From the IMG/VR virus record IMGVR_UViG_2698536511_000012: a DNA stretch of 7,080 nucleotides; one strand, 5' to 3'. A program made the position numbers and the translations under genes. The stretch comes from a virus (lineage: Duplodnaviria > Heunggongvirae > Uroviricota > Caudoviricetes). The notes under the pieces were generated by a model. That model had not been told where the DNA came from, searched no databases, and saw nothing but the letters and a program-made list of their open reading frames with translations. Of the stretch, positions 1 through 6,058 are shown in pieces. Position 1 is the first letter of the stretch. Each line of letters starts with the position of its first letter.

Positions 1-189
1 GAACAGGAGGGACAGCTGATAGAAACAGAAGCCACTGGAGCACCTCAAAAACACCATCATACACTAAATCAGTAAGTTGGCAGCATCACCGGGGGCGCAG
101 ACCCTGATTATGTTATCTGGGCGAAAGAAGTTCAGGGTATTAACCGTGCATGGACTTTCAGACACTGGAAAGGCACTGGAACGGTTGGC

Positions 190-588
190 GTGATGGTGGC
201 GACAAACGATCCGGAACGCCCGGCCCCGGATGAAAGCGTGATTAACGCAGTCAGGGACCACATCCTTCCTCTGGCACCTGTTGCCGGAAGCGGATTGTAT
301 GTATTCGGTGCCACAGAAAAAGTCATCCCGATGACGATTGCATTATCGAAAGACACACCGCAGATCAGGACTGCAATAAAAGCAGAGCTGAATGCACTGA
401 TGTTACGGGATGGTGTGCCAGAGGGGCGTATGTATCTGTCCAGAATCAGTGAGGCCATCAGTTTGTCTGCTGGTGAAGTGGCCCACCGGTTAATCGTCCC
501 TTCATCGGATATTGACCTGGGGGAGACCGAGCTTCCGGTGCTCGGCGAGATCACCTGGCAGGCTTATGACCCGGCAAGGAGTAAATAA
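190..588 (+). CDS. Baseplate assembly protein J-like (gp47/P2 gpJ family), C-terminal portion only; probably a 5'-truncated remnant
   Basis: The translation resembles the C-terminal third of P2 gpJ/Mu gp47-type baseplate proteins. Similarity in the same frame extends upstream to about position 76 with no start codon, and an in-frame TAA sits at 73-75. Sequence upstream of 73 in all three frames does not resemble the J family. The stop overlaps the next gene's ATG (TAATG at 586-590), which is typical operon coupling. Confidence 0.6.
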   Translation: MMVATNDPERPAPDESVINAVRDHILPLAPVAGSGLYVFGATEKVIPMTIALSKDTPQIRTAIKAELNALMLRDGVPEGRMYLSRISEAISLSAGEVAHRLIVPSSDIDLGETELPVLGEITWQAYDPARSK

Positions 589-1178
589 TGGATTCGTTAC
601 AGGATGATTATACAAAGCTGCTGTACGGACTGATGCCGCCGGGGCCTGCATGGTCAGATACCGACGGTGTACTTGACGGTCTGGCACCATCGCTTGTGCG
701 TGTTCACCAGCGGGCTGATGAACTGGTGATTGAAATCGATCCCGGTCAGTCCACAGAGCTGATTGAACGTTATGAAGAATTGTATGGTTTACCTGATTCC
801 TGTTCCCCTGTCGGAACCCAGACATTACGCCAGCGTCAGCAACGTCTTGAAGCAAAAGCCAATGTGGCTGGTGGCATAAATGAGCAGTTCTTCCTGGATC
901 AGCTTGAGGCGCTGGGATATACCGGCGTAACGATCGAACAGTTCCAGCACTTGGATGCAAGCCCCGATCCGGAATGGGGAGATCGCTGGCGTTATTTCTG
1001 GCGTGTGACGTTGCCGATGGATGCCGGTGCTCAGTGGCAGACATGCACGGACGCCTGCAACACACCGATCCGGACGTGGGGGGATACGGTTGCGGAGTGC
1101 GTGATTAATAAATTATGTCCGTCACACACCGTCGTTTTATTTTCCTATCCAGATGAGGATGAAGATGCACAGGATTGA
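588..1178 (+). CDS. Phage tail protein I-like (P2 gpI / YmfQ-like, DUF2313-type) baseplate protein
   Basis: 196-aa ORF with an AGGAG Shine-Dalgarno at 576-580 upstream of ATG 588. It sits between the J-like and tail-fiber genes as in the P2/Mu baseplate order J-I-fiber. The protein resembles YmfQ/gpI-family proteins as I recall them. Confidence 0.75.
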   Translation: MDSLQDDYTKLLYGLMPPGPAWSDTDGVLDGLAPSLVRVHQRADELVIEIDPGQSTELIERYEELYGLPDSCSPVGTQTLRQRQQRLEAKANVAGGINEQFFLDQLEALGYTGVTIEQFQHLDASPDPEWGDRWRYFWRVTLPMDAGAQWQTCTDACNTPIRTWGDTVAECVINKLCPSHTVVLFSYPDEDEDAQD

Positions 1179-2205
1179 TACGCTGACTGCGGTAAAAGAT
1201 AAGTTTGGTCCGGGTAAGAACGGATTTACTGACGGAAATCTTCGCACAGGACGTCTTGCTACCTGGCTGAACAGTGCCATGTGGAATGCCATTCAGGAGG
1301 AAATCTGTGGTGTCATTGAGAAGGCCGGGATAGAACTGAATAAAGAAGAACACGACCAGCTATATAAGGCTATATTATTGCTGGTGGGCGGTGCAATTAA
1401 CGAAGAGGCATTGCTGATAAAAAATAACCTTTCGGATGTGGAAGACAGGGATGAGGCTGTTGAAAACCTCGGATTAAAACCCACGGTGGATAAGGCAAAA
1501 AATGCCGTTCAGCGTGATGGCGACACCATGACCGGAGAGCTGAAAATCCGTGGTGTTAATGCGCTGAGGATTTTCAACGAAGCTTTTGGCCTGATTTTTC
1601 GTCGTTCGGAAGAGTGCCTGCACCTTATTCCCACCAGTGAAGGTCAGGGGGAAAATGGCGATATTGGTCCCCTGCGCCCGTTCACCATTAATCTGCGGAC
1701 GGGTGAAATATCCATGTCGCATAAAGTGTCTGTTGGCGGTGGTTCGCAGGTCAATGGTGCGCTGGGTATCGGCGTTCAGAACGCCCTGGGGGGGAATTCA
1801 ATTGTTCTTGGTGATAATGACACCGGATTCAAACAGAATGGTGATGGCCTGCTGGATGTTTATGCCAATAGCGTGCATGTGTTGCGTTTTCAGAGTGGCA
1901 GTATCCAGAGTAATAAAGCTGTAAACGTTACAGGACGGGTAACACCGTCAGACTACGGAAACTTTGATGCCCGTTACCAGCAGCGAAATGGTGGCGTGCA
2001 GGATGTGCGGTATGGTTATGAAATGTATTACCCCCCCGGCAGTAACACCGTTTCGTGGACATTTCGCTCACCTTCGGGACACGGGCTGTCAGGGATATCG
2101 ATATCGGATACCGGCCGTAACTCAGCGGATAACGTCAACGGCGTGTATTACCGACCGCTGCAAAAACTGATTAATGGCACCTGGTATAACGTAGCGAGTA
2201 TTTAA
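1165..2205 (+). CDS. Phage tail fiber protein (Mu S / P2 gpH-type C-terminal receptor-binding domain); alternative starts at ATG 1153 or 1159
   Basis: The C-terminal ~160 aa (IVLGDNDTGFKQNGDG...DVYAN...NFDARY...INGTWYNVASI) closely match the conserved C-terminus of P2 gpH and related Mu/P1 S fibers as I recall it. The N-terminal region has the W-N-x-IQEE...AGI pattern of fiber baseplate-attachment domains. A GAGGA motif lies 5 nt before ATG 1165. Confidence 0.8.
   Translation: MHRIDTLTAVKDKFGPGKNGFTDGNLRTGRLATWLNSAMWNAIQEEICGVIEKAGIELNKEEHDQLYKAILLLVGGAINEEALLIKNNLSDVEDRDEAVENLGLKPTVDKAKNAVQRDGDTMTGELKIRGVNALRIFNEAFGLIFRRSEECLHLIPTSEGQGENGDIGPLRPFTINLRTGEISMSHKVSVGGGSQVNGALGIGVQNALGGNSIVLGDNDTGFKQNGDGLLDVYANSVHVLRFQSGSIQSNKAVNVTGRVTPSDYGNFDARYQQRNGGVQDVRYGYEMYYPPGSNTVSWTFRSPSGHGLSGISISDTGRNSADNVNGVYYRPLQKLINGTWYNVASI
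1457..1482 (+). other. Relic DNA-invertase (hix/gix/cix-type) crossover-like motif at the constant/variable junction of the tail fiber gene
   Basis: CTGTTGAAAACC-TC-GGATTAAAACCC: the left half is close to the Hin hixL half-site TTCTTGAAAACC, and the AAAACCTCGG core is identical to the reverse complement of the Mu gixL core (site sequences recalled from memory). The right half is degenerate. It encodes the ENLGLK junction motif at 1462-1479. Confidence 0.35.
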
Positions 2206-2207
2206 CA

Positions 2208-2753
2208 ATGTTGCATTTAAAAAATATTACGGCAGGTAATCCGAAAACCGCGGAATAATATCAGCTGACAAAACAGTATGATGTCACCTGGCTTTTTTCG
2301 GAAGACGGCAAAAACTGGTATGAAGAACAGAAGAACTTTGCCAGTGACACCATAAAAATGGTTTACACCGGAGACGGGCGCGTGGTGTGGGTCGGTAAGG
2401 ATGTGACAGGCATTGAACCCCGTAACGCCAGTGTTATTGAAGTTCCTGATATTACCGCCAACCGCCGCATTACCGCGCCGGGTTACTGGTTTTACCGCAA
2501 TGATGAATTTGTCTTTGACTACAGACTCAAAGCGGAAGATGAGCGTGATGCCCTTCTGGCTCAGGTCAGTGCCCGGACAGGGGAATGGGAAGAAGACCTG
2601 CTGCTGGGGCTAATCAGCGACGAAGACCGGGAAAAACTGAAAGCGTACCGTATTTACGCGAAATCGCTGCAGGCGATGGATTTCAGCACCATCACTGATA
2701 AATCCTCATATAACGCCATTGAATGGTCCGTCTCTCCGGAAGGTTCTTCCTGA
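2208..2753 (+). pseudogene. Tail fiber assembly protein (P2 gpG / Tfa family) interrupted by an in-frame TAA at 2256-2258; longest intact ORF is 2358-2753
   Basis: ATG 2208 opens with MLHLKNITAGNPKTAE, matching the conserved Tfa/gpG N-terminus (MxHLKNI..GNPKTKEQYQLTK), then hits TAA where the family has a glutamine codon (CAA). The same frame continues as YQLTKQYDVTWLFSEDGKNWYEE... into the 2358-2753 ORF, which carries the SVIEVPDITANRR motif of gpG. Confidence 0.7.
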
Positions 2754-2776
2754 TTTAATTTATCGCGAGAAAAACT

Positions 2777-4045
2777 ATGTCTGTAGTGATATCAGGTGCG
2801 CTGACTGATGGCGCAGGCATCCCCATGTCCGGATGCCAGATTATTCTGAAATCCCGTGTAAACACCTCAGAAGTGGTGATGCGTACCAGGGCTGATGTAG
2901 TGACCGGAAATAACGGTGAATATTCGTTTGAGGCACAGGTCGGAAAATATTGCGTGTATCTGAAACGGGACTGGCGCGACGAGTACTGTGTTGGCGACAT
3001 TGCTGTATACGACGACTCAAAGCCCGGCACGCTGAATGACTTTCTGATTGCTCCTGATGAGGGCGACCTGAAACCGGATGTCGTCAAACGCTTTGAGGAA
3101 ATGGTGGCGCAGGCGCAGCAGAGCGCCGGGGCCGCAGCCGGAAACGCACAGCAGACGGCGCAGGATGTGGCGGCAGCCGCAGGTTATGCCCGCGCAGCAG
3201 AGCAGGCCAAAAATGACATTGATGCTGCGCTGACCGGCACTCTGAAAACGGCTAACCATCTGTCTGAAATCGCAGCAGCAGGCGAAAAGGCACAACAGAA
3301 GTCCCGGGATAATCTGGGGCTGAAAAGTGCGGCCACGATGGAAGCACAGAGCGACATTTACGACCGGACAAAAGGCCGTCTGGCGATACCCGGCGCATTC
3401 GGCTTTGGGTGTGCTTTTCTGCCTGAAGATGTTATCCGTTTTGACACTAAGAGTGATTTCCTGGCCTGGGTAAGGAATGCGCTGCCAGGTGAATATTCCG
3501 TTGCTGGCCCCTACGACATCATCATACCCGACACACGGTTTGAAGGGGTGCTCAGCATCCGGTGGACTGATGCACGCCCTGAGACAACAGAACCGAGGTA
3601 CAGAGCCAAATCCCTTACTTTTTACGGCATTAACGGCCCCATTTATCACACCCGCTACTGCTACTGGCCCATATCCAGACTGACTGGCTGGGTGAAAATA
3701 AATATAACCACAGAAGATATTATTTACAGAATCGTGGCGAGCTCTGTCTGCAACAGATGGGGAGACCCTGACATTGGCGGGCTGATTATTGCTGCGTACC
3801 AGGGAGAAGCTGACGGTGATAAAGTCATCAGACTTGTCAGGGGGCAGTCATACAGAGGCTCACGACTGGGACCGGTGGGGATTTCAGTGCCCAGTACTCC
3901 CACCGGAACGTATATAGCATCCCCACAATTTTTCATTACGGGATGTTCAGAGCATTCATTACCGGGGTCATATAGCGCCCTGTCCGGGGTGCCGGATGCT
4001 CATGTCTCTGGCGCAATGCCCGGGCTTTTTATTCGCACATCGTGA
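2777..4045 (+). CDS. Tail fiber protein with a lambda Stf-like N-terminal domain, Ala/Gln-rich shaft, and a ~230-aa C-terminal domain of unrecognised family
   Basis: The N-terminus (MSVVISGALTDGAGIPMSGCQIILK...YDDSKPGTLNDFL...RFEEMV) parallels the lambda side tail fiber N-terminal domain (MAVKISGVLKDGTGKPVQNCTIQLK...YEDSQPGTLNDFL...). It is followed by an A/Q-rich segment and a DNLGLK junction at 3308-3325. The C-terminal half matches nothing I recognise. Confidence 0.75.
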   Translation: MSVVISGALTDGAGIPMSGCQIILKSRVNTSEVVMRTRADVVTGNNGEYSFEAQVGKYCVYLKRDWRDEYCVGDIAVYDDSKPGTLNDFLIAPDEGDLKPDVVKRFEEMVAQAQQSAGAAAGNAQQTAQDVAAAAGYARAAEQAKNDIDAALTGTLKTANHLSEIAAAGEKAQQKSRDNLGLKSAATMEAQSDIYDRTKGRLAIPGAFGFGCAFLPEDVIRFDTKSDFLAWVRNALPGEYSVAGPYDIIIPDTRFEGVLSIRWTDARPETTEPRYRAKSLTFYGINGPIYHTRYCYWPISRLTGWVKINITTEDIIYRIVASSVCNRWGDPDIGGLIIAAYQGEADGDKVIRLVRGQSYRGSRLGPVGISVPSTPTGTYIASPQFFITGCSEHSLPGSYSALSGVPDAHVSGAMPGLFIRTS

Positions 4046-4055
4046 GGAATGCACC

Positions 4056-4757
4056 GTGGAAATTAAAAAAATCATTAATCCCCGTTATACCGAAAGTGGC
4101 GCAGTAGACTGTGACGTTTTTTTTGACGACAGGGACCAGGCAGTCCCCTACACAGCCACCGCTGATGATGTCGCACCGACGGGTCAGCGAATCTGGCAGG
4201 AACTGCAAAGTGGCAAATGGGGTGAGATAGCCCCATTCACTGTGACACCAGAAATGCTGGAAGCGGCCAGAGAGGCCAGACGTCAGGAAATTGAAGCATG
4301 GCGCACAGAACAGGAGGCGAAGCCGTTCACGTTTGAATGGAANNNNNNNNNNNNNNNNNNNNNNNNNNNNNNNNNNNNNNNNNNNNNNNNNNNNNNNNNN
4401 NNNNNNNNNNNNNNNNNNNNNNNNNNNNNNNNNNNNNNNNNNNNNNNNNNNNNNNNNNNNNNNNNNNNNNNNNNNNNNNNNNNNNNNNNNNNNNNNNNNN
4501 NNNNNNACTCACTGGGCCGCCTGTCCCCGGTAGTCATGCTGGCAAAATCTGTCACAGCACAAACGCATATGGCGTGGGGTGATGCCGATAATCAGCAGGT
4601 GAAACTGTCGATGCCGGAACTGGAAGAACTGGCGGCAGCAATGGTGCAGGCGCAGGTCGATCGCAACGATGAGATTTATCGCCGTCAGCGTGAAATGAAA
4701 GAGGAGCTGAGTGGTCTGGAGGATTTGGGAACAATTAGAGCGTTTGATGTTACGTAA
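4056..4757 (+). CDS. Putative tail fiber assembly/chaperone-like protein (possibly DUF4376-type); internal region 4343-4506 is N-masked
   Basis: The ORF follows the fiber gene immediately. The likely start is GTG 4056, preceded by GAGG at 4044-4047, rather than the out-of-context ATG 3996 that overlaps the fiber gene by 50 nt. The reading frame is continuous across the N-run in absolute coordinates. The family assignment is from memory and uncertain. Confidence 0.55.
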   Translation: MEIKKIINPRYTESGAVDCDVFFDDRDQAVPYTATADDVAPTGQRIWQELQSGKWGEIAPFTVTPEMLEAAREARRQEIEAWRTEQEAKPFTFEWXXXXXXXXXXXXXXXXXXXXXXXXXXXXXXXXXXXXXXXXXXXXXXXXXXXXXXXXSLGRLSPVVMLAKSVTAQTHMAWGDADNQQVKLSMPELEELAAAMVQAQVDRNDEIYRRQREMKEELSGLEDLGTIRAFDVT

Positions 4758-4955: not shown

Positions 4956-5361
4956 TGGTGGAGCTGGCGGGAGTTGAACCCGCGTCCGAAATTCCTACAT
5001 CCTCGGTNNNNNNNNNNNNNNNNNNNNNNNNNNNNNNNNNNNNNNNNNNNNNNNNNNNNNNNNNNNNNNNNNNNNNNNNNNNNNNNNNNNNNNNNNNNNN
5101 NNNNNNNNNNNNNNNNNNNNNNNNNNNNNNNNNNNNNNNNNNNNNNNNNNNNNNNNNNNNNNNNNNNNNNNNNNNNNNNNNNNNNNNNNNNNNNNNNNNN
5201 NNNNNNNNNNNNNNNNNNGAGAGGGCTCTAAGCAGGTTATTAAGCTGCTAAAGCGTAGTTTTCGTCGTTTGCGACTATTTTTTGCGGCTTTTTACGAGGC
5301 CAACCGCCCCTCGGCATGCACCTTGGGTTTCGCAAATCCCGTCGAATCCAGAATCAGCCCC
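4956..5361 (-). ncRNA. ssrA: tmRNA (SsrA / 10Sa RNA); middle portion N-masked (5008-5218)
   Basis: The reverse complement of 5219-5361 reads GGGGCTGATTCTGGATTCGACGGG...GCTTAGAGCCCTCTC, identical to the first 143 nt of E. coli tmRNA. The reverse complement of 4956-5007 reads ACCGAGGATGTAGGAATTTCGGACGCGGGTTCAACTCCCGCCAGCTCCACCA, the tmRNA 3' end with CCA. It lies downstream of smpB on the same strand, as in E. coli. Confidence 0.9.
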
Positions 5362-5575: not shown

Positions 5576-6058
5576 TTAACGGTGGGCGTTTTTCATGATA
5601 CGTGCTTTATCCACCTGCCATTCGCGTTCTTTGATATCTGAACGTTTATCGTGCTGTTTTTTACCTTTGGCGACGCCGATTTTCACTTTGCACCAGGCAT
5701 TTTTCCAGTACAGGGAGAGCGCCACTACGGTATAGCCTTCTCGATTGACGCGACCGTACAATGAGTCCAGTTCGCGCTGGTTGAGAAGTAACTTGCGGGT
5801 ACGGGTAGGATCGCACACCACATGCGTGGAGGCCACGGCCATTGGCGTGATGTTAGCGCCAAACAGAAATGCCTCTCCGTCACGCAGAAGGACGTAGCTG
5901 TCGCTGATATTGGCTTTTCCTGCGCGCAGGGATTTAACTTCCCAGCCTTGCAGGGCAAGTCCCGCTTCGAACTCTTCTTCGATAAAGTATTCGTGACGGG
6001 CGCGCTTGTTAAGCGCGATGGTCGCTGAACCAGGTTTATGTGCTTTTTTCTTCGTCAT
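5576..6058 (-). CDS. smpB: SsrA-binding protein SmpB
   Basis: The 160-aa translation ([81 protein letters not shown]...) matches E. coli SmpB. It sits directly upstream of ssrA on the same strand. Confidence 0.95.

Follow-up and report, generated by a model that had tools for sequence, protein, structure and literature searches.

A decayed Pin/Gin-type crossover site in the first tail-fibre gene of a phiP27-type prophage is probably a vestige without present recombination function

The recombination sites of the Din family (hix, gix, cix, pix and mix) are 26 bp long and consist of two imperfectly inverted 12-bp half-sites that flank a 2-bp core (PMC3241671). The P segment of e14 (pixL/pixR, pinE) and the G segment of Mu (S/U, U'/S', gin) are the closest described systems to the locus of our study. 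In Mu, P1, e14 and all the relatives that we surveyed, the invertase gene and the partner site follow the fibre-gene site at a distance of 2-4 kb downstream. We compared the sites of a curated table (PMC3241671, Table 3), gix, cix and pix as read from the Mu, P1 and E. coli K-12 (e14) records, and 6 further PacBio-verified EC958 sites (PMC4134206, Table 3), and we derived a matrix for half-sites from the 19 curated halves that are distinct. The inner, variable-side half was represented by GGTTTRNNNGAA, with at least 12.3 bits, in every curated fibre-type functional site and in 6 out of the 6 EC958 sites. Poor halves in known functional sites were without exception outer halves, as in hixR, mix and EC958 Phi2_3'.

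We examined a stretch of 7,080 nucleotides (IMG/VR record IMGVR_UViG_2698536511_000012; hereafter the window), which represents the right-hand end of a prophage of the phiP27 type, inserted at ssrA. The window follows the phiP27-like layout (baseplate J, YmfQ/gp48, fibre, chaperone, PF08400 fibre, DUF4376 and phage end), and ratA and ratB are found beyond smpB. The features were the following:

1..90, strand not given: terminal part of an IS1 insertion within the baseplate J gene
91 to 588: C-terminal remnant of the baseplate J gene
588..1178, + strand: baseplate gene of the YmfQ / Mu gp48 family, directly 5' of fibre gene 1
1153..2205, + strand: tail-fibre gene 1 (350 aa), with an N-domain homologous to e14 StfP and collinear with Mu S
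1419..1535, + strand: linker or module-junction zone, NNLSD...ENLGL...NAVQRDGDTMTG, where homology blocks start in other E. coli prophage fibres
1457..1482, + strand: decayed orphan Din-type (pix/gix-homologous) site, with the constant-side half at 1457-1468, the core TC at 1469-1470 and the variable-side half at 1471-1482
2208..2753, + strand: tail-fibre assembly (chaperone) gene tfa1, Caudo_TAP, homologous to the phiP27 chaperone
2777..4045, + strand: tail-fibre gene 2, directly oriented and with a PF08400 N-terminal domain of its own
3311-3322, + strand: NLGL motif of fibre 2, AAT CTG GGG CTG, not Din-like
3996..4757, + strand: DUF4376 gene, the last phage gene before ssrA, N-masked at 4343-4506 and with no invertase after it
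4956..5361, - strand: ssrA (tmRNA), partly N-masked, the prophage attachment locus
5576-6058, - strand: smpB

The prophage is defective, with IS1 in the baseplate J gene and a nonsense codon in tfa1; in particular, tfa1 (ATG at 2208) has an in-frame TAA at 2256-2258, where its closest relative has CAA (Gln). The phiP27 genome matched 81% of fibre gene 1 with 90.6% identity, and the prophage of E. coli FDAARGOS_944 matched 97% of window positions 1-4340 with 98% identity. Both have the same tandem arrangement of fibre, chaperone, fibre and small gene, followed only by the phage end.

A first-pass annotation, made from the letters of the window, had described one near-consensus and one degenerate half-site at 1457-1482, and the matrix confirmed this description. 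The 26-mer, CTGTTGAAAACCTCGGATTAAAACCC, reads on the + strand as CTGTTGAAAACC, TC and GGATTAAAACCC, while in the orientation of the curated table it corresponds to GGGTTTTAATCC GA GGTTTTCAACAG. The core, TC in the fibre-strand reading and GA in that of the table, is of the type found in gix and bix. The site lies in the fibre ORF 1153-2205 in the frame (G)CT GTT GAA AAC CTC GGA TTA AAA CCC, which translates as AVENLGLKP. The constant-side half scored 10.2-10.4 bits and ranked third among the 13,344 12-mers of the window. The variable-side half scored 0.5 bits and agreed with 2 out of 7 consensus positions, against the at least 12.3 bits found for the inner half of functional sites. The invariant GGTTTRNNNGAA has been lost through a synonymous change of GGT to GGA, which breaks the AAACC arm and is present in nearly all members of the phiP27-like family, and through the replacement of Q/R/G-E by K-P. 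The window thus shows the reverse of the known functional sites, as it is the inner half that is lost.

The whole site reached 10.7 bits, the top score of the window, yet it was level with the best chance matches in 30-45 kb of related phage DNA, which peaked at 10-13 bits in our matrix scan. The true sites of e14, Mu and P1, which belonged to the training set of the matrix, scored 26-29 bits. The summed score was dropped as a measure of function, since the independently verified EC958 Phi2_3' reached only 11.7 bits, near the 10.7 bits of the window; we therefore judged function by the inner half and not by the sum.

The comparison with e14 placed the site in a homologous gene. The ymfQ-stfP order of e14 corresponds to the YmfQ-family gene followed by the fibre gene in the window, and the N-domain of StfP (MHRIDT.TA.KDKFG...) is common to the window fibre, with 48% identity over aa 5-108. 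In e14, pixL (CTCTCGAAAACCTTGGTTTGGGAGAA) lies on the stretch ...ALENLGLGEG... of StfP, and the alignment between StfP and the window fibre stops right there, between NLG and L. The constant-side half of pixL (GGTTTTCGAGAG) and that of the window (GGTTTTCAACAG, both in table orientation) were identical at 10 out of 12 positions, so that the likeness to curated sites proposed in the first-pass annotation was borne out for this half, with a core of the gix type (TC) where pix has TT. Four features of e14 are missing from the window: pinE, an undamaged variable-side half (GGTTTGGGAGAA), a partner site in inverted orientation at a distance of 1.8 kb, and a tfaE-stfE' cassette that is likewise inverted.

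Mu S, in its G(+) form, is collinear with the whole window fibre on both sides of gix. The Mu protein reads ...ALLIKNNLSE...IQNLGL followed by QETVNRARNAVQKNGDTLSG...NGTWYNVASA, and the window protein reads ...ALLIKNNLSD...VENLGL followed by KPTVDKAKNAVQRDGDTMTG...NGTWYNVASI; both end in the C-terminal NGTWYNVAS, and in each the module after the site follows the pattern GL-x-x-TV-x-x-A-x-NAVQ-x-x-GD. Mu gix and the window site also agree fully in their central 10 bp (AAAACCTCGG) and in the TC core. The two sites differ in that Mu has GGTTTACAGGAA where the window has GGATTAAAACCC; neither half of the Mu site is decayed, and it is accompanied by gin and by a perfect partner in inverted orientation. 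The constant region of Mu is also longer than that of the window and about 32% identical to it. The block of DNA homology to a Yersinia Muvirus, which has a G segment and an invertase, begins at window position 1463, inside the site, and the S protein of this virus is 61% identical to the window fibre after the site. The 26-mer aligns, in frame, with both e14 pixL and Mu gix on the N-L-G-L codons.

The likeness could also be coincidental, if NLSD...NLGL is a widespread fibre linker whose codons happen to resemble a Din site and there is no recombination-site ancestry. We weighed the codons against a null comprising every synonymous recoding of AVENLGLKP, weighted by local codon usage. An identity of 16/26 to some curated site was attained by 24% of the recodings (P = 0.24), which is not significant alone and is what coincidence would predict, as is the background level of the full-site score. 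The motif was also present in the invertase-less fibres L062, L063, L135 and L140, and in fibre 2 of the window. However, the score of the constant half was equalled by 2.3% of the recodings (P = 0.023) and the summed score by 1% of them (P = 0.01), so that the DNA similarity to Din sites exceeds what the peptide demands, although modestly.

The choice of codons at the NLGL motif also argues against coincidence. The Din-type codons AAC CTY GGT TTR were found in every N-domain relative with a full or truncated invertase, while invertase-less loci had 0 to 4 of them and the sister clades 0-2 out of 4. The window family has AAC CTC GGA TTA (3 out of 4), whereas other NLGL motifs use AAT TTG GGG... 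or AAT CTG GGG CTG. Fibre 2 served as an internal control: its DNLGLK is encoded by GAT AAT CTG GGG CTG AAA, with none of the 4 Din-type codons and a score of -16 bits. Moreover, homologues that align with the window gene both before and after the site have a working pix or gix at the same codon. Positional homology to pixL and gix, taken together with the codon choice, lifts the site above chance, and we consider coincidence unlikely.

We found no second site in inverted orientation in the window with the matrix scan, the mismatch search and the inverted-repeat search, and no partner site in the complete phiP27, in the complete FDAARGOS_944 prophage (the closest complete one in E. coli) or in 45 related viral loci. 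With PinE and Gin as queries, tblastn recovered the invertases of e14, Mu and P1, our positive controls, but none in the window, the complete phiP27 genome (42.6 kb), the FDAARGOS_944 prophage or 45 phiP27-like loci. The absence of both from the window, which had been noted before, thus held in all these searches. According to annotation and tblastn, complete phiP27 and the complete FDAARGOS_944 prophage (integrase to DUF4376) have a tyrosine integrase and no serine invertase. In the 45 phiP27-like viral loci the 26-mer was identical or nearly so, and the fetched flanks contained no invertase; neither an inverted Sv'/tfa' nor an invertase had left a remnant in 45+ phiP27-like loci. The window did not contain an inverted alternative fibre C-terminus with its chaperone either; tfa1, fibre 2 and the DUF4376 gene are all on the + strand. 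The first-pass annotation had named two findings that would count against a relic: an element that lacks both invertase and partner, and a match that goes no further than the ENLGL codons force. The former is the case in the complete relatives, but the latter is not.

Some other sequences were considered and rejected. An inverted repeat between 1474-1491 and 4049-4066 (78% complementary) at the 3' end of the site is not a partner, as it lacks the core and has no matrix score. The second-best matrix match (2238, 8.4 bits) is direct, not inverted, and falls in the N-terminal codons of tfa1, beside the nonsense codon. Fibre gene 2 was ruled out as an inverted alternative C-terminus by its own PF08400 N-domain and its direct orientation. 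Finally, E. coli strain cq9 gave the sole ssrA-adjacent match among complete E. coli genomes, but it corresponds to a different Stx2e prophage with a P2-like tail and is thus uninformative about the prophage of the window.

A working inversion switch whose partner and invertase lie beyond the 7-kb window is extremely improbable. The left edge of the window falls in IS1, and what lies beyond it is seen through relatives: the absence from the whole element rests on the close relatives phiP27 and FDAARGOS_944, and the prophage itself is seen to about 10 kb upstream (L006). Nevertheless, the complete relatives have no invertase anywhere, the space that partner and invertase usually occupy (2-4 kb downstream) holds tfa1, fibre 2 and DUF4376, all direct, and then ssrA and the chromosome, and the variable-side half lacks the invariant motif.

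We used the N-domain alignment as a search query and recovered 51 genomic and 80 viral loci. Each locus was scored for invertase homology and for its highest-scoring sites, one in the fibre gene and one downstream. The N-domain relatives form a graded series, which spans about 120 relatives and runs from the working switch through truncated invertases, orphan sites and decayed sites to fibres without the motif:

Site, inverted partner and full invertase: L077 and L090 (Mangrovibacter); L100, L102 and L107 (e14 type)
Good site and truncated invertase: L066, L070, L080, L085, L101 and L049/50
Good orphan site, no invertase within 8 kb: L096/97, L082/87, L093, L095 and L098
NLGL motif with decayed DNA: window family (10.7 bits), L069 (9.0), L073 (4.2), L062/63 and L135 (2-5)
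No motif: many loci

In a neighbour-joining tree of the N-domain (72 residues, poorly resolved), the site-bearing lineages were placed in at least 3 separate clades, interleaved with motif-less ones. The tree was built to polarise gain against loss but, poorly resolved and confounded by module exchange, it gives no polarity for the clade of the window.

The first-pass annotation had placed the site exactly at the junction between the constant and variable parts of the fibre. At deep divergence this is so: the homology to the window fibre ends at aa 108 in e14 StfP and at aa 112 in L044-46, and the site is also a module boundary towards L058 and, at the DNA level, towards Mu-like phages. Within the phiP27-like family it is not, as the fibre is conserved to about aa 185-190, some 80 codons past the site; the conservation per residue is 0.6-0.9 as far as about aa 185 and drops only beyond that. 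Among complete E. coli genomes, homology blocks started at gene position 267 (the NNLSD codons, with a P2-type tail-collar N-terminus as partner), at 308, 323 and 335 (at or just beyond the site, which occupies gene positions 305-330), at 376 (the GDTMTG codons) and further on at 628-649. L058, a prophage fibre of E. coli ETEC6333 (...AVKIAMDNANARLAKNRNGSDIPNKPLFIENVGLKPTVDKA...), has Mu-type constant sequence before the site and window-type sequence after it. In this hybrid, the one that we examined, the switch point was found in the outer constant half, between TTAT and TGAAAAC, about 8 bp outside the core dinucleotide, at a resolution limited by divergence. With junctions at 267, 308-335 and 376, and with the L058 switch off the core dinucleotide, the site as such is not established as a recombination hotspot. 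The site is one junction among several in a linker zone of about 120 bp with several conserved motifs. Fibre modules have been joined in this zone more than once, most likely by recombination across short conserved motifs and not by the action of an invertase.

These junctions also bear on whether the half-site and core are still used, if rarely, by Pin-type invertases acting in trans, which would capture or exchange distal fibre modules. The L058 hybrid, which joins a Mu-type constant region to a phiP27-type post-site module at the site, counts in favour. Iida and Hiestand-Nauer are said to have described quasi-sites of Cin in 1987, which would also count in favour. Functional sites with one poor half do exist (hixR, mix and EC958 Phi2_3'), so that, by sequence alone, some residual binding may persist. 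Invertases acting in trans on sites paired in cis have been documented, and a heterologous invertase has been inferred to act in this way (PMC4134206). However, the poor half of the known functional fibre sites is the outer one and the window has lost the inner one, and the L058 switch lies about 8 bp off the core, with other junctions spread over several motifs of the linker zone. Wild-type invertases require two sites in cis and Fis/enhancer on supercoiled DNA, and the invertasome confines them to intramolecular inversion; therefore, intermolecular exchange of modules driven by an invertase is unlikely. The synonymous diversity at the site was at the median for the gene (rank 87 out of 182 nine-codon windows), a weak test with 8 unique ungapped sequences only; being average, it gives no sign of selection on the DNA itself, and no added synonymous conservation was seen at the site within the phiP27-like family (8 unique ungapped sequences). 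We consider rare use in trans very unlikely, and there is even less reason to expect that the orphan half-site and core are kept as a docking point for Pin/Gin-type invertases from co-resident prophages. If the latter were true, phages without an invertase would capture distal fibre modules at quasi-sites, a way of changing host range distinct from inversion.

We thus regard the 26-mer as probably the vestige of a Pin/Gin-type crossover site without present recombination function. By position and descent it is the counterpart of a Din invertase site (Pin of e14, Gin of Mu). The constant half and the core would survive because they code for the conserved ...ENL(G) of the NLSD...NLGL linker, which connects the baseplate-proximal N-domain to the distal fibre. 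The sole role of the 26-mer today would be to code for protein, because the inverted partner, the invertase gene with the enhancer inside it and an inverted alternative fibre tip are all missing. The first-pass annotation had suggested a fossil of an invertible host-range switch: the site is a positional homologue of the Pin/Gin sites, but a past invertible segment in this lineage is not established. The vestige may have arisen through in-situ loss of an invertible segment or through import of the constant half by module exchange, and we hold the two to be about equally probable. The post-site module (GLKPTVDKAKNAVQRDGDTMTG...) bears on this choice, as an ancestor with GGTTTRNNNGAA would favour decay in situ, while a GGAYTRAAACCC of long standing would suggest that the constant half came in by exchange.

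By itself, the site is one more invertase-site-like scar in a tail-fibre gene and carries little weight, as the class has been recognised since the early 1990s. Nonetheless, one fibre N-domain family spans the full decay series from working switch to scar. The codon signature AAC CTY GGT TTR, then NNN GAA, tells sites that are or recently were live apart from a mere NLGL motif in the protein, and it could aid the annotation of invertible host-range switches and curb over-calling.

Recombination site-like sequences that bound tail-fibre gene segments and mark exchange points were reportedly described by Sandmeier in 1994 (Mol Microbiol 12:343, pmid 8065255). The parts of PMC4134206 and PMC8986868 that deal with such sequences at fibre module boundaries credit them to Sandmeier 1994. 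The window site fits this class, being Din-site-like, in a fibre gene without an invertase and, at deep divergence, at a module boundary, and it is an instance specific to phiP27-type prophages. The exchange-point idea corresponds to the second reading of the first-pass annotation, a hotspot for module exchange; our data favour exchange across several short linker motifs over exchange catalysed by an invertase at the core. Among known phages, phiP27 itself (genes L53-L57) has the same order of the tail module, with 84-91% identity, and a 26-mer identical to that of the window; the final small gene is DUF4376 in the window and in FDAARGOS_944. The copy of the window differs from phiP27 in being integrated at ssrA and defective. 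Finally, the phiP27-type prophages, which are Stx2e-related, have two complete fibre and chaperone cassettes in tandem, whereas Mu, P1 and e14 have a single cassette with a switch.

The second fibre gene of the window encodes the same NLGL peptide as the first, and it served as an internal control for the crossover site at window 1457-1482 in fibre gene 1.

3311-3322, linker motif of fibre gene 2 (...HLSEI...SRDNLGLKS), with NLGL codons AAT CTG GGG CTG

These codons have no resemblance to the sites of Din invertases (Pin/Gin-type serine recombinases); therefore, the DNA is not dictated by the peptide.

In E. coli ETEC6333 (locus L058, NZ_CP122600.1, ~4990-5030), we found a natural hybrid fibre, in which a Mu-type constant region (...NKPLFI) is joined at the site (TTATTGAAAACGTCGGACTGAAACCC) to a phiP27-type post-site module (ENVGLKPTVDKA...); this fibre is followed by a tandem second fibre and then by a DUF4376 gene, and an invertase is absent from the locus. 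The fibre gene of another relative, locus L043 (= L134; ~10270-11050), has an IS1 within its NNLSD linker codons, ~25 nt upstream of the site and with a 9-bp target duplication, CGGATATCG. Finally, the site of the phiP27-like relative L122 (~8293-8318) codes for NLEL and not NLGL (GGA to GAA); therefore, the glycine is not an absolute requirement of the linker motif.

Two lesions were identified in genes of the window prophage:

1-90, IS1 end, with the terminal inverted repeat at ~68-90
91-588, baseplate J remnant
2208-2753, tail-fibre assembly gene downstream of fibre gene 1, with an in-frame TAA at 2256-2258

The baseplate J gene, uninterrupted in relatives (e.g. that of E. coli FDAARGOS_944), is split by IS1, and the first base of the window already lies within this element. 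In the near-identical contig L006, a second, inverted copy of the same 91 bases was found 5.8 kb upstream. The TAA is codon 17 of the tail-fibre assembly gene, where the 98%-identical relative has CAA (Gln), and because of it the listed ORF begins only at 2358. The IS1 insertion and this TAA, combined, mark the prophage as defective.

The window sequence is masked by two runs of N, one within the DUF4376 gene (4343-4506) and one within ssrA (5008-5218); window ORF translations spanning them carry no meaning, and the tmRNA length given by ARAGORN (406 nt) may be affected by the run in ssrA. In E. coli cq9 (L054, NZ_CP031546.1), ssrA is occupied by another, Stx2e-carrying prophage, which has a P2-like tail module, yet ends in the same pair of PF08400 fibre and DUF4376. 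Phages that use the ssrA attachment site but are otherwise different thus seem to have the terminal fibre cassette in common.

The invertase appears to have been often lost within the fibre family of the window. Din invertase genes truncated to fragments of 44-125 aa (L066, L070/L156, L080, L085, L101 and L049/L050; hosts Sodalis, Arsenophonus, Mangrovibacter, Shigella and Scandinavium) adjoin fibres that retain good crossover sites. Intact, high-scoring pix-type sites were present in fibres of L096/L097 (Shigella flexneri / E. coli chromosomes) and L082/L087 (Edwardsiella anguillarum), with neither invertase nor partner site within 8 kb downstream. These are orphan sites less advanced in decay than that of the window, and the one in L096/L097 is exactly pixL, the crossover site of the e14 StfP fibre gene.
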